Positions 3,015 through 13,336 of a stretch of 13,336 nucleotides of DNA are shown piece by piece. Numbering within the stretch: the stretch's first letter is position 1; each line of letters starts with the position of its first letter. The notes beneath the pieces are model-generated. The model made no database searches. It was not told where the DNA came from and worked only from the letters and a program-made list of their open reading frames with translations. This stretch comes from a virus. Its lineage: Duplodnaviria; Heunggongvirae; Uroviricota; Caudoviricetes. Both the position numbers and the translations under genes were made by a program. The stretch lies in IMG/VR virus record IMGVR_UViG_2751185957_000009; one strand, 5' to 3'.

Positions 3015-3194
3015 TTCCGAAAGAATCAACGGGTTAGGCCTTAATGGGCTGCGTGGTAATTATCAGCATCCAGAATATGACGGGTTATGTTTCCGACCTC
3101 CTCAATTTGAGGTTCCCGAAAATATCAACGGGTTAGGCTGGTTTCCCCGATGTTCGCCGCTGGCGAATTTCGAAAATATCAACCAGTTACCGCC
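3015..3194. repeat. Four direct repeats of an ~18-bp motif (AA(A/G)AAT(A/C)TCAACGGGTTAGG-like) with ~50-bp period
   Basis: Copies centred near 3024, 3073 (degenerate), 3119 and 3174. Largely non-coding; the last copy overlaps the 3' end of ORF 3187-3468. Confidence 0.5.
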
Positions 3195-3468
3195 GCAACC
3201 GCTCCGGCTTCTTCCAGTGGTATGTAATTTTCTCCGTTTCCCGATACAGTGCCACGCGGCGATTGTAGGCCAGCATTTCAAGAACGCGGATCCGTATGTT
3301 GCGCATATCCACATCATTAAGCTGGATACCATCACGGCGCATCACCTCAGCAACAACACGCGCATAATTTTCGGCTGTCACGCTGTCCGGCTGCGTGGCC
3401 TGTTCGTCAGTCTGCTGGCTGATTCCACCAGCACGGCGGATTAATCCCAGTATTTCGGCTTCTGTCAT
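3187..3468 (-). CDS. Hypothetical protein (93 aa) at the distal end of the satellite
   Basis: ORF with ATG preceded by AGGTG; non-repetitive, charged/helical composition. No family recognised. Confidence 0.45.
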   Translation of the reverse strand: MTEAEILGLIRRAGGISQQTDEQATQPDSVTAENYARVVAEVMRRDGIQLNDVDMRNIRIRVLEMLAYNRRVALYRETEKITYHWKKPERLRR

Positions 3469-3748: not shown

Positions 3749-4183
3749 TTACTGTTCTGTATCGGCTGATTGCTCCATGCTGGCACGGCGAACGCTTACG
3801 GCATGACGCCACCCAGCCAGAAAGCCAGCCATTTTATTTCGTGCCTTGCTCACATCTTCCGGTGAATAGCCGTAAATCTGCAAACCTTCATCAAATCGAT
3901 GTTCTGTTTCTTCACTGGAGTACTCGTCACGCTCAGATGAAAGCAGCCTGGCAAACATAATTTTTTCCAGCGCACTGGTTTCTACGTGATATCTGATGGC
4001 CTCAAGACGGCTTTTACCTGAAGACCAAAGCAATGTATGCCCGATGTGATAACCGCCAGACTTTCCGCGATCCGCATTAAGATACGGCATCCCCTGTTTG
4101 GTCCATGCGCGAATAGTGGTTCTGTTAACCTTGAAATGTTCAGCTATTTCCTGCTGACTTACAAAACAAGCTTTATCAATCAT
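3749..4183 (-). CDS. Nu1-like small terminase subunit / packaging-specificity protein (144 aa, shorter than lambda gpNu1)
   Basis: The N-terminus (DKACFVSQQEIAEHFKVNRTTIRAWTKQGMPY) parallels the lambda gpNu1 winged-HTH region (NKKQLADIFGASIRTIQNWQEQGMPV). AAGGT Shine-Dalgarno 6 nt before the ATG. Lies between two cosN copies. Confidence 0.7.
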   Translation of the reverse strand: MIDKACFVSQQEIAEHFKVNRTTIRAWTKQGMPYLNADRGKSGGYHIGHTLLWSSGKSRLEAIRYHVETSALEKIMFARLLSSERDEYSSEETEHRFDEGLQIYGYSPEDVSKARNKMAGFLAGWRHAVSVRRASMEQSADTEQ

Positions 4184-4344: not shown

Positions 4345-4758
4345 TCAGATGGTTTTCAGTATGCGATCGATGTCGCCGTCATCGCCTGGGTTTCTGCCAT
4401 CGTATGCCATGCCAGCTGATACGGTTTGTGGGCTGTGCATGTCCATAAAGTTTTCAAAGGCTGCGGTAAGCTCTGGTGCAACCTTCGGGCGTTCCTGCTC
4501 TATGGTCATGTTCAGGATGTTTTTAGCCGTATCAACATCGATACAAGGCACGTTTGCCATTGCACGCAACAGCGGCTGATAGTCTTTATGCTCATGAAGC
4601 GCCATAATCGCATCAGCGCGCGGCTTGTCCTGCTCTTCCAGTTTGTTGAGTTGATATACGGCCTCGTAGGTTGATAAACCTCTGTCAGCCATTGCCCGCG
4701 CTTCGGCTTTAAATTTACTCGCCAGCGGTAGCGCCATGATGCTTTCATTCGTTGCCAT
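4345..4758 (-). CDS. Hypothetical protein (137 aa), last gene of the capsid operon
   Basis: ORF with GGGGGA Shine-Dalgarno, starts 12 nt after the D-like stop. Acidic C-terminus. No family recognised. Confidence 0.55.
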   Translation of the reverse strand: MATNESIMALPLASKFKAEARAMADRGLSTYEAVYQLNKLEEQDKPRADAIMALHEHKDYQPLLRAMANVPCIDVDTAKNILNMTIEQERPKVAPELTAAFENFMDMHSPQTVSAGMAYDGRNPGDDGDIDRILKTI

Positions 4759-6979: not shown

Positions 6980-7252
6980 TTAGCTGTCCTGGTAATTGCG
7001 CCATATTTCATCACCAGCACCATCTATACCCATTTCGGCATAAGTGCGATCGACTGCCTTTTTCAGGTCTCCGAAATTATCCGGCGGCTCCGGTGCCCTC
7101 TGTGCCTTCCTTGAACATTCCAGCCGTCGCATCGTGATGTGATGCCGTTCCTTGTCTGTCTCCACCAGCTGCATGACTTCACCCCATCGCGCCGCCGCCC
7201 TCCGGTAAAAGCCTTTCGCCTCCAGTTCCTCCGCTATGCGGTCATGTACCAT
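6980..7252 (-). CDS. PerC-family transcriptional regulator homolog (about 90 aa; an upstream in-frame start at 7372 is possible)
   Basis: Motif IAEELEAKGFYRRAAARWGEVM matches the PerC-family signature as I recall it (AExLExxGxWRRAAxRW). The ATG at 7252 is preceded by GAGGGGG and lies 11 nt after the SSB stop. Family assignment from memory. Confidence 0.6.
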   Translation of the reverse strand: MVHDRIAEELEAKGFYRRAAARWGEVMQLVETDKERHHITMRRLECSRKAQRAPEPPDNFGDLKKAVDRTYAEMGIDGAGDEIWRNYQDS

Positions 7253-7262
7253 CGTCACCCCC

Positions 7263-7673
7263 TCAGAACGAAATATCATCACCGTAAGGGTCATCGCCTC
7301 CCGCTGGTGGCTGATTACCCTGTGTGCCTGTGGTTTTGCGTCTGTTCCCGCCTGGACGTGCCGCGCGGGCACTGATTACGCTGTCTGCGATAACCTGCCA
7401 GCCCTGCCGCGTTTCTCCGTTCTGTCCGGTCCACTGGCTTACCTGCATCGTGCCGGATACGCTGGCAACATCGCCTTTTTGATGTTTAGCCAGGAAGTCG
7501 GCCTGTTTGCCAAATGCGATGACCGATAACCATAACGTCGCCTGTCCGTCCTGTGCCTGGCTGCATGGCAAAGATACCGCCATACGCGCCAGCGTCATCG
7601 GTGTGCCCTTGCTGGTCTGTTTTACCTGCGGGTCGTCCACCAGCCGCCCGTAAGCGGCTATCTGTGCCGTCAT
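7263..7673 (-). CDS. ssb: Single-stranded DNA-binding protein (136 aa)
   Basis: OB-fold pattern (GRLVDDP..., WLSVIAFGKQADFLAKHQKGDVASVSGTMQVSQWTGQNGETRQGWQVIADSV), Gly/Pro-rich linker and acidic C-terminal tip DDPYGDDISF resembling the SSB DDDIPF tail. Strong GGAGAGGTGG Shine-Dalgarno. Confidence 0.8.
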   Translation of the reverse strand: MTAQIAAYGRLVDDPQVKQTSKGTPMTLARMAVSLPCSQAQDGQATLWLSVIAFGKQADFLAKHQKGDVASVSGTMQVSQWTGQNGETRQGWQVIADSVISARAARPGGNRRKTTGTQGNQPPAGGDDPYGDDISF

Positions 7674-7921
7674 AATTCCACCTCTCCGGTTTTAACGTTG
7701 ATGGTTGTTACCTGTTCCGCTTCGGCAATCTCCCGTTCTGTCAGCGTGGCAAAGTTTGCCGCCGCCGTGGTCATGAATGCGCTTATCAGGTCGGGATGTT
7801 CCTTCGCGTATCCTTCCCGCGTGTGGCGGTCTATCGTTCTGATTGCCACCTTTAAGGTGTGCTCAGTCATGTCTAACGCTTTATATTTTGGCTCTGTTCT
7901 GTCTCTGCGTTTTTGGGTCAT
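7670..7921 (-). CDS. Hypothetical protein (83 aa), coupled to ssb
   Basis: Its stop overlaps the ssb start (ATGA). ATG at 7921 with GAGAGG Shine-Dalgarno. The longer form in the ORF track would start at a GTG inside the iteron array. Confidence 0.5.
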   Translation of the reverse strand: MTQKRRDRTEPKYKALDMTEHTLKVAIRTIDRHTREGYAKEHPDLISAFMTTAAANFATLTEREIAEAEQVTTINVKTGEVEL

Positions 7922-7930
7922 TTCTCGCAA

Positions 7931-8123
7931 CCTCTCACTTTTTCGCCTCACTTTTTCAAGCGTCTCACTTCGTCGCAGTTGGGATTTTCGGTTTTTCTAT
8001 GTGTGTGTTTTATAAGTATTTTTTTACCCCTCACTTTTGAGGATGTATACAGGTCGAAAAGTGAGGGAGAGCGGGCTAATTTTGGCCCTCTTTCTATCCC
8101 CCTCGCTTTTGCTCCTCACTTTT
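7931..8123. repeat. Putative replication origin: at least six CCTCACTTTT iterons around an AT-rich spacer, directly 3' of the replicase gene
   Basis: Iterons at 7934, 7948, 7964 (variant), 8029, 8101 (variant) and 8114, plus one inverted copy at 8057-8066. AT-rich stretch 7991-8027. The last iteron overlaps the replicase stop codon. Confidence 0.65.
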
Positions 8124-9522
8124 ATAGCGGCGCTACATCATCCCCATCGATACTAATAACCCCATCTTTTTCCAGCTTGTACAGCCAGCGCCGGAAGTTT
8201 TTCATTTCATACCCCAGCTTTTTCATGTCATCACGTAACAGCGGGATCGTGCACTTGTCGCCGTTCTGTGTGCGTGAACGGATGCACCCCCATAGCGCGG
8301 TATGGTTTTCCGTCTTGTTCCCTGCCTCCTCGATGCGCTCCAGTTCAACAGGAGGGCGCGGATCATCCACCACCACCAGCGACGTGATTAATTCACCGTC
8401 AGCGTCGGTAAAAAGCTCCACCACGCGTAAGTCATATGCGGCTTCTTTGAGTTCCTCCGCGTCCTTCATTTTGGTGCATGAGATAACCAGCGCTTTGCTT
8501 CCTGCGTCCTCCCTGCGTATCCGGTATTCAGCATCCAGCGAAGCACGAAATGCACTGGAACCGCGCGCGCCTTTCGTCTCATCCTTGCCGGAATGGTGAA
8601 CCACCAGCACCGTGGCCCCTGTGCGTCGTTTCAGTTCGTCACAACCACGGATAAACGCCCCCATATCACGGGAATCATTTTCATCATTCCCACCAAAGCA
8701 ACGCGCCAGCGTATCCAGAATAATCATGCGTACAGGTTTACCCGTTTCCCGCTCCACCTGACGGGCAGCGATAACCATTTCATCAACATCAAGCGGGGCA
8801 GCCGGAAAGATGGGGCGGTTTACCAGATACAGATTTTTCACCTGCTCATCGTGCACAACCTCCCAGGCTTTTACACGACGCGGAACGCCGATACCGCCTT
8901 CACCAACCACATAGAGAACCGCACCATGTGCAACCCTGCGGCCTCCCCACTGGCGACCAGTGGCAACATGGCACGCCCACGATCCGGCAAGGAATGATTT
9001 ATAGGACCCGCTAGCCCCGTATATGCTGCATAGCGATACCGCCGGAATAATCCCCTTAACCACGTAATCCAGTTGCGTGTCGTATCCGGTAGATCCAACG
9101 CTCATCGGTAGCGTGGTTTTTCGCTGGTGGTTTTTTTCTTCCACCGGCTCTTTCCCGCGCACCCGTTCCAGGTATTCGCGCCAGTTCTCCCGCATATGGC
9201 TGTGCATCCCTTCGGGGTAATAATTCGCATCAGTTACACCCGCCGCCGCCAGCTTGTGCGCAATGGCATTAATATTTGATGGCCTGATGTGGCCTGCCTT
9301 GTACAGCCGGACACAATAGCGCCCCTCGTCGATGATTCTCAGGTCTGCCAGTTCATCCAGTTGATCATCAGCCAGCACAACGGGAGGCACATTATCGCCA
9401 GCCAGTCGCCCGTCCTGTTCCTGCCACTGTTTTGCATGTGCCCAGGCATCACTACCCGCAAAAATAATGACTTCGGTCATCTTGTCGTAAGGCTGTTTTT
9501 TTAAGTTCGGTGCGCTTTTCAT
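8122..9522 (-). CDS. Replication protein with RecA-like AAA_25 ATPase domain (satellite replicase/helicase, 466 aa)
   Basis: P-loop-like YGASGSYKSF, Walker B-like MIILD, and the signature VLVVHHSGKDETKGARGSSAFRASLDAEY typical of AAA_25 replicative ATPases. Its start overlaps the upstream ORF stop (ATGA). Confidence 0.8.
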   Translation of the reverse strand: MKSAPNLKKQPYDKMTEVIIFAGSDAWAHAKQWQEQDGRLAGDNVPPVVLADDQLDELADLRIIDEGRYCVRLYKAGHIRPSNINAIAHKLAAAGVTDANYYPEGMHSHMRENWREYLERVRGKEPVEEKNHQRKTTLPMSVGSTGYDTQLDYVVKGIIPAVSLCSIYGASGSYKSFLAGSWACHVATGRQWGGRRVAHGAVLYVVGEGGIGVPRRVKAWEVVHDEQVKNLYLVNRPIFPAAPLDVDEMVIAARQVERETGKPVRMIILDTLARCFGGNDENDSRDMGAFIRGCDELKRRTGATVLVVHHSGKDETKGARGSSAFRASLDAEYRIRREDAGSKALVISCTKMKDAEELKEAAYDLRVVELFTDADGELITSLVVVDDPRPPVELERIEEAGNKTENHTALWGCIRSRTQNGDKCTIPLLRDDMKKLGYEMKNFRRWLYKLEKDGVISIDGDDVAPL

Positions 9523-9818
9523 TTCTTGCCCCTGAATCCGTTAATCATGGTTTTCAGCTTCTGGATGTTTGCCCGTGCCCTGGCGTTGCTGGTGGGCACG
9601 TTATGCGGCGCGGTCTGTACCAGAGAAAAATCACGCCGGAACTGATAAACAGGCATCACGCAATCATATTCGTAACCTTCACGGCGGTAGGTTACACGCC
9701 GTTCTTCCACGCCCTTAATCATTACCGTGCCGCCGTACTGGTCGCGGTAAATATCACCGCGCGTAAATTTAGGGTGAGTGTTGCCACTGGCAGTTAAGCC
9801 AGAATATTTAAGTTTCAT
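9519..9818 (-). CDS. Hypothetical protein (99 aa), coupled to the replicase
   Basis: ORF with GGAGA Shine-Dalgarno; its stop overlaps the replicase ATG. Confidence 0.5.
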   Translation of the reverse strand: MKLKYSGLTASGNTHPKFTRGDIYRDQYGGTVMIKGVEERRVTYRREGYEYDCVMPVYQFRRDFSLVQTAPHNVPTSNARARANIQKLKTMINGFRGKK

Positions 9819-9823
9819 TATTT

Positions 9824-10057
9824 TTATTCTCCGGTGTGCTGTTCTTTATATCTGTCGTGCAATAGATCTATTTCTTGCAGTTCCATTATTACAGGCTCAA
9901 GAAGCGTTATTAATGCCGTGGCAATTCTTGATTTTTGTTTGTCGCGTTCATTGTCGCCAAGTGTTTCAAGCCATATGCGCAATATTTCCAGCATGTTTTC
10001 ACTGTGAGAAAGTGCAAGAAATGCGCGGTCTATTGTTTCGTGGTAAATATCACGCAT
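9824..10057 (-). CDS. Hypothetical small protein (77 aa)
   Basis: ORF whose ATG overlaps the upstream stop (ATGCGTGA). Helical, acidic composition. Confidence 0.45.
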   Translation of the reverse strand: MRDIYHETIDRAFLALSHSENMLEILRIWLETLGDNERDKQKSRIATALITLLEPVIMELQEIDLLHDRYKEQHTGE

Positions 10058-10283
10058 GGCTTACATCCTCAGGAAATTTTCTTCTGTAACGCGCCTCTGC
10101 CACATATTCCGCATAATCGGCGGCGATATTCAGTACATCAAGCCCCGTTGATTTATATTCTCTCGTGGAAAGTAAGAAAAAAGCCGCTCTAATAAGTTCT
10201 GGCATTGACGAAAGCGCATCAGCCGCATCATCAGGAACGCCGGGAAATTCCTGTTTCAGGGAATTAAAACGATCATCACGCAT
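10050..10283 (-). CDS. Hypothetical small protein (77 aa from ATG at 10283; the ORF track extends to 10331)
   Basis: ATG at 10283 follows a G8 run acting as Shine-Dalgarno and overlaps the upstream stop (ATGCGTGA). Confidence 0.45.
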   Translation of the reverse strand: MRDDRFNSLKQEFPGVPDDAADALSSMPELIRAAFFLLSTREYKSTGLDVLNIAADYAEYVAEARYRRKFPEDVSHA

Positions 10284-10497
10284 AACCCCCCCCATTTTCA
10301 CAATCAGCAACAAGAATATTTTTAGCGTCATTCAGCGACCGCGTTGCGATGTATCGGATACATTCCAGGGCGAACTGTGTCCGGTCTTTCTGTTCTTCTC
10401 CCTGCGCAAGCTCTGCAGTGCATTCAATATCAATAAGCGCGTGCATCAGCGTAGTGAGTGCGGCGGCTGCTGCGTTCGGTGTGGTTTTATTGTGCAT
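10276..10497 (-). CDS. Hypothetical small protein (73 aa from ATG at 10497; the ORF track extends to 10539)
   Basis: ATG at 10497 with GGGGGA Shine-Dalgarno, overlapping the end of the upstream ORF by 11 nt. Confidence 0.45.
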   Translation of the reverse strand: MHNKTTPNAAAAALTTLMHALIDIECTAELAQGEEQKDRTQFALECIRYIATRSLNDAKNILVADCENGGGYA

Positions 10498-10687
10498 AGG
10501 TTTCCCCCTGACGAATACGGGCGGCGAATACAGCAACACAACCGGACGGGCAACGGCTACGCGCTTCGCGTTCCGTCCAGGCGGTTACGTGGATGATTTG
10601 AGATTCTCCGGCACTCAGGGCCAGAAAACGCCACACAAAGGCCGTTTGTGTGTGTACAAGGTGTGGTATATGATTTACGGCAACCAT
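10487..10687 (-). CDS. Hypothetical small protein (66 aa), first gene of the leftward replication operon
   Basis: ATG at 10687 preceded by AGGAG; the longer ORF (to 10786) would run through the palindromic operators, so the short form is preferred. Confidence 0.4.
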   Translation of the reverse strand: MVAVNHIPHLVHTQTAFVWRFLALSAGESQIIHVTAWTEREARSRCPSGCVAVFAARIRQGETYAQ

Positions 10688-10773
10688 AACGGCTCCTAGT
10701 TTACGTTGTTGGTTAGAAGCCCTGCGAGTGGTAATGACACTTGCGGGGCTTTGCTTTTTTAAGTGCTCTTGTG

Positions 10774-10824
10774 TTAAGGTGGCCACCTAACAATGGAAAG
10801 GCTAATTCAATAGGTGACCACTTG
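10774..10824. promoter_or_regulatory. Divergent control region with two palindromic operator-like sites (GGTGGCCACC and GGTGACCAC)
   Basis: TTAAGGTGGCCACCTAA at 10774-10790 and ATAGGTGACCACTTG at 10811-10824, centres ~35 bp apart, between the divergently oriented operons. An imperfect hairpin plus T-run lies at 10718-10760. Confidence 0.5.
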
Positions 10825-10887
10825 TCAATAATCAAACGCGATAAAAGCCCTAAAGGGGACGGGCAATCCCCACAATTCAGAATGCGA

Positions 10888-11013
10888 ATTTCTCCAGAGC
10901 TAAAAGAGCAATTCGACAAAGAAGCACAGAGCGACGGCATAAGCCTAGCCAACTGGCTTAAAGAGTTGGGGCGCACTGAACTAAAGCGGCGCGGCATAGA
11001 ACCCAAAGGATAA
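10888..11013 (+). CDS. Putative ribbon-helix-helix (Arc/CopG-like) DNA-binding protein (42 aa from ATG; the ORF track starts at TTG 10741)
   Basis: MRISPELKEQFDKEAQSDGISLANWLKELGRTEL fits the beta-strand, helix, G-loop, helix pattern of RHH proteins. Start uncertain; weak ribosome-binding site. Confidence 0.4.
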   Translation: MSPELKEQFDKEAQSDGISLANWLKELGRTELKRRGIEPKG

Positions 11014-11070
11014 AAACTATCAGCGCCGTGGTGTGAGGTATTACGGCGCATTGCTATGCAGGACAACACA

Positions 11071-11244
11071 ATGACCGATAAAGAATTGACCAAAACATTA
11101 TCACCGGCACGGAAAAGACGGCGCAGAAAGATAGAGCATGAATCAGAAAGATTCGCACCATGTGCTTTTGCCCTTGAGCAATTCCTTAAAGAGTATAGGG
11201 AAAAGCGCTCATTGCAGGTATGGCAACGAACTGAACCAGACTGA
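11071..11244 (+). CDS. Hypothetical small basic protein (57 aa; alternative start at 11056)
   Basis: ORF with AGGA 8 nt before the ATG at 11071; contains an RKRRRRK basic patch. Convergent with alpA. Confidence 0.35.
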   Translation: MTDKELTKTLSPARKRRRRKIEHESERFAPCAFALEQFLKEYREKRSLQVWQRTEPD

Positions 11245-11337
11245 TTGCATTGCCCACCAGCCTGATAGCGGCTATCATCCCCGTGCTTATGTTTGGGATC
11301 ATATACACATAAGGCGCAGCGGGTTAATTGTTCAGAA

Positions 11338-11366
11338 AGGCGGCTCCATATCGGGGCCGCTTTTTT
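11338..11366. terminator. Terminator-like hairpin between the convergent plus-strand module and alpA
   Basis: GGCGGC...GCCGC stem followed by TTTTTT on the plus strand, 27 nt after the alpA stop on the other strand. Confidence 0.4.
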
Positions 11367-11392
11367 CGTGTTTGTCATATCTGTGATACCCG

Positions 11393-11599
11393 TTAAGCAG
11401 CCGTTCCGCGTGCTTCCTGTTCGCGTTCTTTCTGCCAGGCCAACACATCATCCTCATACCATCCGCGACGGCGTAAACCAACGCGAAAACCCTGCGGAAA
11501 TTCTCCGGCGTTGATCATGCTTTGCAGCGTGCTGTCTGCCTTGATGTGGATAATTTTTTTTACTTCCTGGCGAAAGATAATTTTTCTGATTGCTTCCAT
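11393..11599 (-). CDS. alpA: AlpA-family transcriptional regulator / excisionase-like protein (68 aa)
   Basis: Motif RQEVKKIIHIKADSTLQSMINAGEFPQGFRVGLRRRGWYEDDVLAWQKER matches the AlpA (Phage_AlpA) pattern as recalled (EV..I.....STLY.....G.FP..IKLG.R.V.W...EV..W). AAGGT Shine-Dalgarno. Confidence 0.8.
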   Translation of the reverse strand: MEAIRKIIFRQEVKKIIHIKADSTLQSMINAGEFPQGFRVGLRRRGWYEDDVLAWQKEREQEARGTAA

Positions 11600-11731
11600 C
11601 GTGATTTACCTTGTGAATCCGGTGTATTCCGGTGACAAATACGGTAAATCATCGGATATGGGTAAAAACAGTTCCCACCGTTTTTAAACGGTATACACCG
11701 TTTTTATATTGATGATTTGAAATGGAATTAT

Positions 11732-11754
11732 AAAAAAAGCGGCATTTCTGCCGC
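11732..11754 (-). terminator. Rho-independent terminator after ORF 11766-12017
   Basis: AAAAAAA-GCGGCA-TTTC-TGCCGC: 6-bp stem, TTTC loop, T7 on the minus strand, 12 nt after the stop. Confidence 0.65.
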
Positions 11755-11765
11755 TTCCAGGATTG

Positions 11766-12017
11766 TTACCGCCATTTTTTGGGCCTGCCTCCGATCTTCA
11801 TAGATGCCGGACGTACGACCTTATCAATACTTACCGCCAGATTTCTGGAAGCGCCACGGGATACCAGAAAATCTACTACCTGTTTTTTTGATGGGGCCGT
11901 CGTTCTGTCCTCCGGATCGTAGGTTGACCAAAATTCATGCTGAACCATCAGGGCCAGTTGCAGCCCGTCGCAATTGCATCTGATATTTTTTTGCATCTTA
12001 ACGGTTTCATGTTTCAC
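11766..12017 (-). CDS. Hypothetical small protein next to the integrase, possibly an excisionase-like DNA-binding protein (start uncertain)
   Basis: ORF between int and alpA with basic C-terminal tail KIGGRPKKWR. The track start is a GTG; in-frame ATGs at 11996 and 11948 lack good ribosome-binding sites. Confidence 0.4.
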   Translation of the reverse strand: MKHETVKMQKNIRCNCDGLQLALMVQHEFWSTYDPEDRTTAPSKKQVVDFLVSRGASRNLAVSIDKVVRPASMKIGGRPKKWR

Positions 12018-12094
12018 GGCCTTGTCGTTAAATTTGATGCAATTATACGACGGTTTTACATGGTTTTCGTAGTTTTTACTGGTTTTCTGTACAG

Positions 12095-13336
12095 CTACAC
12101 GGCTCGGATACCCCTTTTACCACTGGCGAGGGTTACGCCCGTCGCCGCAGCCTCGACAAATTCGCCCCACCAGCGCATCAGCACGATGCGTTTTTCTATG
12201 TAGTTGCTCCGGTTGTATGCCCGTCTAACTTCGTTGGTGTCGACGTGGGCAAGTGCCGCCTCTATTACGTCCGGCTCGAATCCTTCCTCGTTCGCTGCTG
12301 TGCTGAATATGGCGCGTAATCCATGAGACACCAGCACGCCAGCGAATCCCATACGCCGCAATGCTGCGTTAGCTGTCTGGCTGTTCATCGGCTGCTGTGG
12401 GTCTTTCAGACTTGGGAAAACGTAATTGCGGTGGTGGCTGATTGGTTTCATGGCCTCCAGCACCGCCATAGCCTGACCGGAAAGCGGGATAACGTGATCC
12501 CTGCGCATCTTCATGCGTCCGGCAGGTATCGTCCATTGCTTCGCGTCCAGGTTGATTTCATCCCACCGCGTTGATGACGCTTCGGCGGGACGGGTTACGG
12601 TCAGTAACTGCCATTCAATCAGTAATCTGGTCTGCCGTTCTGTTGCCGATACTGATAAAGCCTGCATAAGCTCCGGCAGCTGTTCGGGGCGGATTGTTGG
12701 CATATGTTTTTTTACAGGTGAGGGAAACGCCTTACGCACATTCATAGCCGGATTGGCATCAATCAGCCCACTGTTGGCGGCGTAATCCATTACCTCATTA
12801 ACGCGCTGTAAAACCCGCTTGAGTGTTTCCAGGTTGCCGCGCTCCTTGATGGGTGTAAGCACTTCAACGAACCTTCGGGCGGTGAGGGTATCTATTGGCG
12901 TGTTGCCGATGAACGGGAATACATATTTATCCAGCGAACGCCAGATGTCTTTAATCGTGTTGGGGGCCAGATTCTGGCTGATTTTCACCTGGTACCATGC
13001 CGCCGCCACATTTTCGAACGTGTTCCCTTGTCTTCGGGCCTCTGCCTCTCGTTTTTTCTTCTCATGGCCCTGCGGGTCAGTTCCGGCACTGATTAACGCT
13101 CTGTACTCGCTACGGCGTTTTCTGGCATCAGCCAGGGAAACATCATCAAGCGATCCAAAACTCAGCAATATTCTTTTTTTGTCCGATGGCCGGTAGTAGG
13201 AAAATCGCCAGAGTTTTGATCCGGACGGTTTGACCAGGAGAAAAAGCCCTCCGCCGTCCTGTAGGGTGTATTCCTTTTCCGCTGGTCTGGCTGCTTTGAT
13301 CTGCACCGTGGTTAATGGGGGTGTTTTTCTCGCCAT
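12095..13336 (-). CDS. int: P4-type tyrosine integrase (413 aa)
   Basis: N-terminal arm-binding domain typical of P4-like integrases (LTTVQIKAARPAEKEYTLQDGGGLFLLVKPSGSKLWRFSYY), C-terminal catalytic region with HGLR and the tyrosine in RRAYNRSNY. Start codon is the last three bases of the window. Confidence 0.9.
   Translation of the reverse strand: MARKTPPLTTVQIKAARPAEKEYTLQDGGGLFLLVKPSGSKLWRFSYYRPSDKKRILLSFGSLDDVSLADARKRRSEYRALISAGTDPQGHEKKKREAEARRQGNTFENVAAAWYQVKISQNLAPNTIKDIWRSLDKYVFPFIGNTPIDTLTARRFVEVLTPIKERGNLETLKRVLQRVNEVMDYAANSGLIDANPAMNVRKAFPSPVKKHMPTIRPEQLPELMQALSVSATERQTRLLIEWQLLTVTRPAEASSTRWDEINLDAKQWTIPAGRMKMRRDHVIPLSGQAMAVLEAMKPISHHRNYVFPSLKDPQQPMNSQTANAALRRMGFAGVLVSHGLRAIFSTAANEEGFEPDVIEAALAHVDTNEVRRAYNRSNYIEKRIVLMRWWGEFVEAAATGVTLASGKRGIRAV

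Follow-up and report, generated by a model that had tools for sequence, protein, structure and literature searches.

A cassette of five small open reading frames (ORFs), O1 to O5, lies directly upstream of the replicase gene in IMG/VR record IMGVR_UViG_2751185957_000009, a stretch of 13,336 nt of viral DNA that is referred to here, at its full length, as the window. The five ORFs are real genes of the minus strand and are under purifying selection. We favour, with a probability of about 0.6, the reading that they stand first after the promoter in the early/replication operon of a phage-inducible chromosomal island (PICI), and that this operon is switched in the following way.

The operon would have a sigma-70 promoter some 100 nt before O1, and a divergently encoded ribbon-helix-helix (RHH) repressor would act on two operator repeats that overlap this promoter. 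Ribosomes would load at O1 and be passed from gene to gene by termination-reinitiation, which would make the replicase dependent for its synthesis on the leader genes being translated. An antisense RNA of about 80 nt, which would start within O1 and end at a conserved terminator, could pair with the O1 ribosome-binding site and silence the whole chain, including the replicase, until the island is induced; in eight related loci the same control would be exerted by P1/P4-type C4/IsrK RNAs located before the Icd-like gene. As for the products, O1 may, going by its family name, block cell division, O5 is likely to be a small basic Tudor/SH3-like transcription modulator that acts as RgdR does on LEE1 (of the enterocyte effacement locus, LEE) and motility and that may work with RNA polymerase or the replicase, and O2-O4 are likely to be small acidic accessory proteins.

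The gene chain leading to the replicase

The cassette runs along the minus strand from 10687 to 9519 as five ATG-initiated ORFs, arranged head to tail and leading into the gene for a RepA-type helicase. The genes (ORF1-ORF5, shortened to O1-O5) are numbered 5' to 3' along that strand.

10487-10687, minus strand: O1, 66 aa, ATG start, Shine-Dalgarno (SD) sequence AGGAG
10276-10497, minus strand: O2, 73 aa, SD GGGGGA
10050-10283, minus strand: O3, 77 aa, SD formed by a run of eight G residues
9824-10057, minus strand: O4, 77 aa, SD GAGGA
9519-9818, minus strand: O5, 99 aa, SD GGAG
8122-9522, minus strand: RepA-type helicase (AAA_25), 466 aa, Pfam AAA_25 at 148.5 bits; the replicase that follows the chain

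O1 and O2 overlap by 11 nt (ATGCACAATAA), the O2/O3 and O3/O4 junctions each consist of an identical 8-nt overlap (ATGCGTGA), O4 and O5 are separated by 5 nt, and O5 meets repA in an ATGA overlap. Every cassette start is preceded by a purine-rich SD, and 99.6% of the cassette strand lies within ATG-initiated ORFs of 60 aa or more; the corresponding figure in 2000 shuffles averaged 10% and reached 64% at most. A preliminary description of this DNA had reported five closely packed ORFs of 66-99 aa, without saying on which strand they lie, together with their ribosome-binding sites and the use of one and the same overlap at two junctions, all of which the coordinates and the shuffle control bear out. 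The overlapping stop and start codons that it also described are found at O1/O2, O2/O3 and O3/O4, but not at O4/O5 with its short gap.

Ninety-three related loci were collected, 11 from stretches of RefSeq Escherichia coli genomes, two from a one-genome-per-species collection and 80 from IMG/VR; since they were picked by their similarity to O5 (at least 87% identity), the frequencies given for them are biased and are not population estimates. A greedy stop-to-start walk from the Icd-like ORF (the family of O1) to the DUF4222 ORF (that of O5) traced an unbroken chain in all 76 loci that contain the upstream anchor, with junction offsets of -11, -8, -4, -1, +1 and +5 recurring among the related loci. 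Every unique variant (n = 53, 42, 24, 47 and 44 for O1 to O5) keeps the sense frame open, antisense frames are not kept up, and the ratios of non-synonymous to synonymous substitution (dN/dS) for close pairs are 0.31, 0.31, 0.17, 0.50 and 0.27 respectively. The antisense frame that shares third codon positions with the sense frame has a similar dN/dS, as expected, yet it contains stops in nearly all variants, being stop-free in 0/53, 8/42, 0/24, 0/47 and 0/44 of them. The dN/dS values below 1, the open sense frames and the conserved chain therefore identify the cassette ORFs as genes. The preliminary description had allowed that the ORFs might prove unconserved in related islands, or that the opposite strand might carry the conserved coding signal; the 76 intact chains show that they are kept, and no such signal was found on the opposite strand. 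Plus-strand ORFs at 9510-9797, 9778-10089, 10165-10596 and 10349-10699 were rejected, their frames not staying open in homologues and their dN/dS being about 1 or higher.

Clustering of the chain members places the Icd-like family (F0) and the DUF4222 family in 76 of 76 loci and the O4 family (F2) in 73, with a distant O4 member (F13) in one further locus, whereas the middle of the chain varies (O2, O3 and the optional families F5, F7, F8, F9 and F11). O1, O4 and O5 are fixed anchors, and the space between them is filled by O2, O3 and at least five further families of small genes, which are subject to insertion, loss, swapping or fusion; the order seen in the window is the commonest (19/76 loci). 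Identity shifts from gene to gene between islands, O1 being 98% identical to its counterpart in locus L003 and 56% to that in L005, and O2 showing the reverse (51% and 97%), which argues that modules are exchanged at the junctions. O5 and the replicase gene share the ATGA overlap in 85 of 85 loci, and they do so with each of three replicase types: a RepA helicase in 49 loci, a primase in 31 and a DUF927 protein in 5. Judged by eye, the three types (window 8122-9522, L002 and L005) appear to have in common an N-terminal stretch of about 70 aa (TEVIIFAGSDAWAHAKQWQE...), which could be a docking or origin-related domain.

The putative promoter region and a candidate antisense RNA

The region upstream of O1 contains elements on both strands, here listed with the divergent gene that borders them.

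10799-10828, minus strand: inferred cassette promoter by consensus reading, -35 TTGACA (10828-10823), 18-nt spacer, -10 TAGCCT (10804-10799)
10777-10788 (AGGTGGCCACCT) and 10812-10822 (AGGTGACCACT), no strand assigned: operator-like repeats that flank or overlap the cassette promoter
10822-11013, plus strand: divergent RHH gene, 63 aa, TTG start, YlcI/YnfO-like and Arc/HicB-like; putative cassette repressor
10646-10674, plus strand: candidate antisense promoter by consensus match, -35 TTGTGT (10646-10651) and -10 TATGAT (10669-10674), opposite the first codons of O1
10681-10761 (about), plus strand: candidate cis-antisense small RNA (sRNA) of about 80 nt, whose sequence complements the start codon (10685-10687) and SD (10693-10697) of O1
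10716-10752, with a T-run to 10760, plus strand: intrinsic-terminator hairpin from a terminator scan, between the cassette promoter and O1

The layout of the cassette promoter, TTGAC(A/G)-17/18-TAnnnT, also occurs in other island variants, and its -35 hexamer is overlapped by the start codon of the RHH gene. The RHH protein matches a PHROG Arc-like repressor (E=1.4e-6) and Pfam HicB (E=9e-4), and is assigned to the YlcI/YnfO family in the annotation of a related island. There are at least 10 types of operator repeat across the islands, each with its own RHH variant, and such co-varying repeat and RHH types are the signature of what would be repressor/operator specificity pairs. The position that the preliminary description gave the cassette, between a regulator and the replicase, is borne out by this arrangement, the RHH gene with its matched operators lying on one side and RepA on the other. 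A known parallel is the immI region of phage P22, in which the RHH repressors Arc and Mnt are likewise divergent from the operon they control.

In 18 divergent variants the 13 pairs of the hairpin between the cassette promoter and O1 include eight with compensatory changes and 97.9% of cells are paired, which none of 500 shuffles matches. The wobble cells comprise 34 G-U pairs when the hairpin is read as a plus-strand RNA and none when it is read as a minus-strand RNA, in which only 194 of 233 cells pair. The covariation and the strand-specific G-U pairs therefore indicate that selection has acted on the hairpin within an RNA antisense to the cassette. In all 48 upstream variants scored as having the hairpin, a hexamer resembling a -10 (mostly TATGAT, with some TATAAT or TATGCT) lies 4 or 10 nt ahead of the complement of the O1 start codon; it is missing from the four C4-type variants, in which the hairpin is also missing. 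The predicted fold of 10678-10764 has an energy of -36 kcal/mol (z = -4.3).

Some relatives appear to have a different RNA at this place. In the sister island L001, Rfam identifies C4 (77.6 bits) together with isrK (66 bits), located some 55 nt before the start of the Icd-like gene, and both are detectable in eight related loci in all, including L001, which occupies the same tRNA-Pro site; these C4/isrK-bearing islands do not contain the hairpin and -10 module of the window. In turn, no Rfam family matches the window at the gathering threshold, and the search that identifies C4 and isrK in L001 finds neither of them at E<=10 over 10400-11800. Together with targets of the c4-a1b1 type, C4 and isrK lie upstream of the Icd-like ORF at 11338-11536 (minus strand) of L001, and also in L017, L046, L049, L067, L069 and L077.

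Established systems invite comparison. In the immI region of phage P1 the C4 RNA blocks translation of icd and thereby expression of ant; in plasmid R1 the CopA RNA blocks the tap leader peptide, to whose translation that of repA is coupled; and in P22 the sar RNA is antisense to the ribosome-binding site of ant. The RNA-based immunity of P1 immI and P4 CI (Rfam C4, RF01695, and IsrK, RF01394) resembles the present case in that an Icd-like ORF heads a coupled operon and that eight related loci have C4 and isrK, but the window has neither RNA, a candidate opposite-strand RNA and a putative protein repressor standing in their place, and its downstream cargo is a replicase rather than an antirepressor. 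The likeness to R1 (CopA/tap/repA) and P22 (sar/ant) is functional, namely a short antisense RNA that covers the ribosome-binding site of a leader gene needed for the gene downstream; the relay in the window would differ in having five genes with conserved proteins, and there is no sequence or family relationship. A search of the literature for sRNAs in CP-933C or antisense RNAs in PICIs returned nothing relevant.

Several points weigh against a replication operon switched in this manner. The antisense RNA and both promoters are candidates read from the sequence, and a simple promoter scan of 7900-12200 returned neither promoter; the -10 of the cassette promoter, TAGCCT, is weak in this island, and about one variant in four has a weak T-tail behind the hairpin. 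Conservation of the antisense -10 is inseparable from coding constraint, the 5' end of O1 being conserved throughout. The stop/start overlaps indicate a potential for translational coupling, as judged from their geometry, and 'Icd-like' is the name of a family, from which the suggested block of cell division by O1 is taken. A repressor role for the RHH protein would depart from the published model for Gram-negative PICIs, which has an AlpA activator and no repressor (PMC6092414). The AlpA-like gene of this island is a weak Pfam match (17.6 against a cutoff of 21 bits). Finally, the selection of the loci through O5 colours all of the frequencies on which the comparison draws.

The encoded proteins and alternative roles

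The preliminary description had seen no recognisable domains in any of the five proteins. This stands for O2, O3 and O4, for which a PHROG scan gives families of unknown function only, but not for O1 and O5, which belong to named families. O2 (family F3; isoelectric point, pI, 4.9) matches PHROG 5146 and the N-terminal half of PHROG 2512, both of unknown function, and occurs alone in 52 loci, fused to O3 in 17 and fused to F5 in two. O3 (F4; pI 4.8) has 114 homologues, from E. coli or Shigella wherever a species is named, with N-terminal residues that are invariant among homologues 62-96% identical. The structural approach that had been suggested for each protein was applied to O3, and yielded an AlphaFold2 (AF2) model consisting of helices only, a small helical bundle with a mean confidence (pLDDT) of 80, for which a fold search of the PDB and BFVD gave nothing under E=1. 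O4 (F2; pI 5.0) has only nine representatives among 1.84 billion protein clusters, and its homologues among the 120 matches listed are mostly at least 94% identical, the lowest being 92%. O2-O4 seem to be restricted to Escherichia/Shigella. Paralogy of the three, suggested by O3 and O4 both beginning with MRD, was rejected, as BLASTP gives it no support.

The optional members are no more informative, Pfam and PHROG scans of F5, F7, F8, F9, F11, F13 and F14 returning families of unknown function only, apart from a second Icd-like domain in F9. In the islands with F9 (L017, L058, L060 and L081) this domain is C-terminal in a second, longer protein encoded inside or just before the cassette, and a 324-aa version, with two small ORFs and then a primase behind it, is present in LR881103 (L094, 8200-9174), an element from an induced lysate that resembles the capsid-forming PICIs (cf-PICIs). 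Neighbours within the cassette are repeatedly fused or truncated at their junctions (P0075, F6, F10 and F12, in L003, L006, L035 and others), examples being O3' joined to O4 in a 126-aa protein on 36 contigs, F5 joined to O2 in one of 146 aa, and an O3 cut to 50 aa.

These features could be taken to mean, as the preliminary description proposed on the strength of position, that the cassette is concerned with conflict, O2-O4 and perhaps O1 and O5 sensing or interfering with the helper, or countering host or phage defences, with the turnover of genes reflecting an arms race. The middle is indeed highly variable in content and allele (at least seven optional families, with identities from about 50% to 100% gene by gene), and small, acidic and taxonomically narrow proteins are typical of inhibitors. 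In P4, epsilon lies upstream of alpha, a position to which that of the cassette is analogous. We nevertheless think such a role unlikely for the cassette as a whole. No family match or fold that was found points to sensing of, or interference with, the helper: no defence or anti-defence model is matched (PADLOC defence-system models gave no families for O1-O5 and RepA at E<=1), the PHROG families are of unknown function, and the fold of O3 is uninformative. The dN/dS of 0.17-0.50 is purifying and not diversifying, and O1, O4 and O5 do not vary as cargo would but are constant anchors. The interference screen of EcCICFT073 took in only genes after the origin (ori), which were cloned and tested, but the interference known for this PICI family maps to one of them, rpp (PMC6739421). 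It is the purifying selection and the fixed position of O1, O4 and O5 that lead us to argue that at least these three serve the induction and replication programme of the island itself. For a part in conflict, the foremost candidates are still the variable acidic proteins O2 and O3, together with the optional families.

O1 is a member of the NCBIfam family NF033153 (host cell division inhibitor Icd-like), scoring 64.6 bits against a cutoff of 25; a tblastn search of 50,697 phage records with O1 found one match, in a satellite-like element, and none in P1 at E<=1e-3. O5, a basic protein of 99 aa (pI 10.2), matches Pfam DUF4222 (PF13973) with 85.7 bits against a cutoff of 27, has an R20-G21-D22 motif, and is identical at 80 of 99 positions to a protein annotated by NCBI as RgdR. 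Its AF2 model has a confident core, although the alignment behind it is shallow (76-93% identity). A sequence search of solved structures with O1 and O5 gave nothing significant, and a scan for the O5 family in one genome per species found it in Shigella flexneri and Escherichia albertii only.

RgdR (ECs1581), encoded in O-island 51 (CP-933C), has been studied experimentally, and activates LEE1 and represses motility (PMC3378721). Its homologue C1493 is carried by prophage CP073-3 of strain CFT073 (PMC3378721), and expression of either protein affects type III secretion as well as motility (PMC3378721, PMC10877973), these two being the only ones for which such phenotypes are reported (PMC3378721); RgdR variants are also present in strains without the LEE (PMC3378721). 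O5 shares with RgdR its length of 99 aa, the DUF4222 domain, the R20-G-D motif, the identity at 80 of 99 positions and a position directly upstream of a replicase gene, but RgdR is known as a prophage virulence regulator, in a description that includes neither the coupling to the replicase nor membership of a chain. The coordinates of CP073-3 we take to be those of the prototype PICI EcCICFT073. By its likeness to RgdR, the O5 allele of the window is a candidate for activity on LEE1 and motility.

It could then be asked whether the cassette consists of host-directed regulators (morons), which rewire the transcription and physiology of the lysogen independently of the island replication cycle. 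The effects of RgdR and C1493 on type III secretion and motility (PMC3378721, PMC10877973), the retention of the RGD motif in O5, the presence of a PerC-family gene on the same island and the repression of the LEE by a PICI-borne PerC in another island (PMC11773190) all speak for this, yet we regard it as quite improbable. O5 is coupled to the replicase gene in every one of the 85 loci, whatever the replicase type, and a repressible promoter with an antisense-covered leader, if correctly identified, would suit a function in the induction phase better than constitutive expression in the lysogen; moreover, most carriers are not LEE-positive, variants in strains without the LEE having already been reported (PMC3378721).

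The junction between O2 and O3 has an unusual structure. A tract of eight G residues (10286-10293, minus strand) encodes Gly-Gly near the end of O2 and also forms the SD of O3. Among 52 loci the tract has 7 (15 loci), 8 (21), 9 (12), 10 (2), 11 (1) or 12 (1) residues. With 7 or 10, O2 and O3 are fused into one protein of about 150 aa; with 8 or 11 they are split with the 8-nt overlap ATGCGTGA, as in the window; and with 9 or 12 a longer O2 overlaps O3 by 28 nt. Tract length differs within three of nine groups of loci that have identical 200-nt flanks on both sides, and all three frames occur among the eight RefSeq complete-genome loci and the window (7, 7, 7, 8, 8, 9, 9, 9 and 12 G), whereas other homopolymers in the same loci are far steadier, with a few A or T runs of 7-8 varying by one base. 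Homopolymer sequencing error could explain length differences of a single base, but it cannot account for the tracts of 10-12 G or for the consistent annotation of finished genomes. The O2 domain is read in every tract state and O3 always keeps its ATG and G-rich SD, and since O3 has its own start in all states, the tract toggles between fused and split forms rather than between ON and OFF. Most of the 114 O3 homologues are 73-89 aa long. An interpretation of O2 and O3 together as a frameshifted pseudogene, as in the annotation of L001, was rejected, stand-alone O3 being the commonest form (47 loci) and all three frames being found in finished genomes.

The tract resembles the contingency loci of Neisseria, Haemophilus and Campylobacter in that a coding tract of G7-G12 differs in length between near-identical islands and shifts the frame, but it differs in that it never turns a gene off, and in that the comparison here is between islands and not within one strain. 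Homopolymeric tracts of this kind are unusual in E. coli, and the junction is a rare length-hypervariable tract for that species, a frameshift hotspot rendered harmless by the restart site directly after it.

That the ORFs are purely regulatory leaders or decaying remnants, with peptide sequences of no importance, is highly improbable, for although the poly-G junction tolerates three frames, fusions and truncations occur (F6, F10, F12 and P0075) and one copy is flagged 'frameshifted' by NCBI, dN/dS is well below 1 for O1-O5, the frames are open in all variants, the N-terminal residues of O3 are invariant across its homologues 62-96% identical, and both O5 and O3 have confident AF2 cores.

The cassette in its island

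The reading of the cassette as the leading part of a replication operon bears on satellites that are common. The cassette itself is ordinary for the PICI family, and thousands of genomes have it in their annotation. Most E. coli genomes contain PICIs, yet the genes between regulator and replicase have never been given a role in the satellite life cycle, and RgdR, known only as a virulence and motility regulator of enterohaemorrhagic E. coli (EHEC), is here placed as a fixed replicase-coupled PICI early gene, which offers a concrete reason for its presence in strains without the LEE. A search of the accessible literature found no account of RgdR as such a gene, and none of an antisense module replacing C4/IsrK, of RHH/operator specificity pairs or of the poly-G junction. 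If they act as proposed, the antisense RNA and the RHH/operator pairs would add a layer of repression to satellites that have been described as controlled by an AlpA activator alone, and would explain the coexistence of islands with different 'immunity types'.

A more far-reaching version, which we put forward tentatively and regard as doubtful in its entirety, is that an undescribed switch gates the replication of many E. coli PICIs, namely of 66 among the 74 sampled loci that extend far enough upstream. In this, an antisense sRNA that has replaced C4/IsrK, together with immunity-specific RHH/operator pairs, would block the Icd-like leader, and the block would be relayed through at least four coupled functional genes to the replicase; RgdR would be a Tudor-like factor that binds RNA polymerase or the replicase, with its effects on EHEC virulence as a side effect, and the poly-G tract would switch between fused and separate forms.

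To judge from its genes, the island is an EcCICFT073/EcCIO42-type PICI, that is, a phage satellite, and its assignment to the satellites in the preliminary description is upheld by the PICI gene layout and by a match to E. coli 042 with 98.1% identity over 72% of the island. It is about 10.7 kb in length and is bounded on one side by yejO (270-2510); the related island L001, which has the same integrase, adjoins tRNA-Pro between yejM and yejO, and we take the island of the window to lie likewise between yejO and the tRNA-Pro/yejM side. Among 5426 complete E. coli genomes, 4454 match parts of the island and 1790 match the cassette region. The gene order is integrase, AlpA-like helix-turn-helix (HTH) protein, plus-strand RHH protein, cassette, RepA, single-stranded DNA-binding protein (SSB), PerC, homologues of capsid protein E and decoration protein D, and an HTH protein. 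The island has its own replicase, the remainder being SSB, PerC, capsid E, decoration D and the HTH protein only, with no lysis or tail genes, and its induction and packaging are predicted, from its PICI type, to be driven by a helper.

12095-13336: tyrosine integrase; the window ends within the gene, and the island's own tRNA side lies beyond it
11393-11599, minus strand: AlpA-like HTH protein, 68 aa, Pfam Phage_AlpA at 17.6 bits, below the cutoff of 21

The AlpA-like protein also matches the PHROG family 'excisionase and transcriptional regulator' (E=5.5e-7). The island agrees with the EcCICFT073/EcCIO42 PICIs (PMC6092414, PMC6739421) in its integrase, its weakly AlpA-like HTH protein, its small ORFs and its genes for a replicase, SSB, PerC, capsid E and decoration D, and in being an island of about 10.7 kb next to a tRNA gene; the published model for this type differs from ours in naming AlpA as the only master regulator, and contains no description of the small-ORF chain, the divergent RHH gene and operators or an RNA regulator. 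Among the genes of this PICI family that were tested, c1499 and c1500 gave no phenotype (PMC6092414).

Between the RHH gene and the AlpA-like gene there is a plus-strand ORF of 62 aa (11056-11244) without a family match, and then a plus-strand terminator-like hairpin (11334-11366) that is convergent with the AlpA-like gene. A minus-strand ORF of 221 aa (10713-11378) was judged spurious; it is antisense to the RHH gene and to ORF 11056-11244, and its counterparts in relatives are fragments of 'ash/Icd-like' pseudogenes. Downstream of the replicase, the PerC-family regulator (6980-7372, minus strand; Pfam 144.6 bits) means that homologues of two LEE regulators are carried on one PICI; as listed, its ORF overlaps the SSB gene (7263-7673), and it probably begins at an internal start. 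Beyond the capsid and decoration genes there are three minus-strand ORFs (4345-4758, 3749-4183 and 3187-3468) that have either no match or weak HTH matches only, and which from their position could include Rpp/TerS-like packaging genes.

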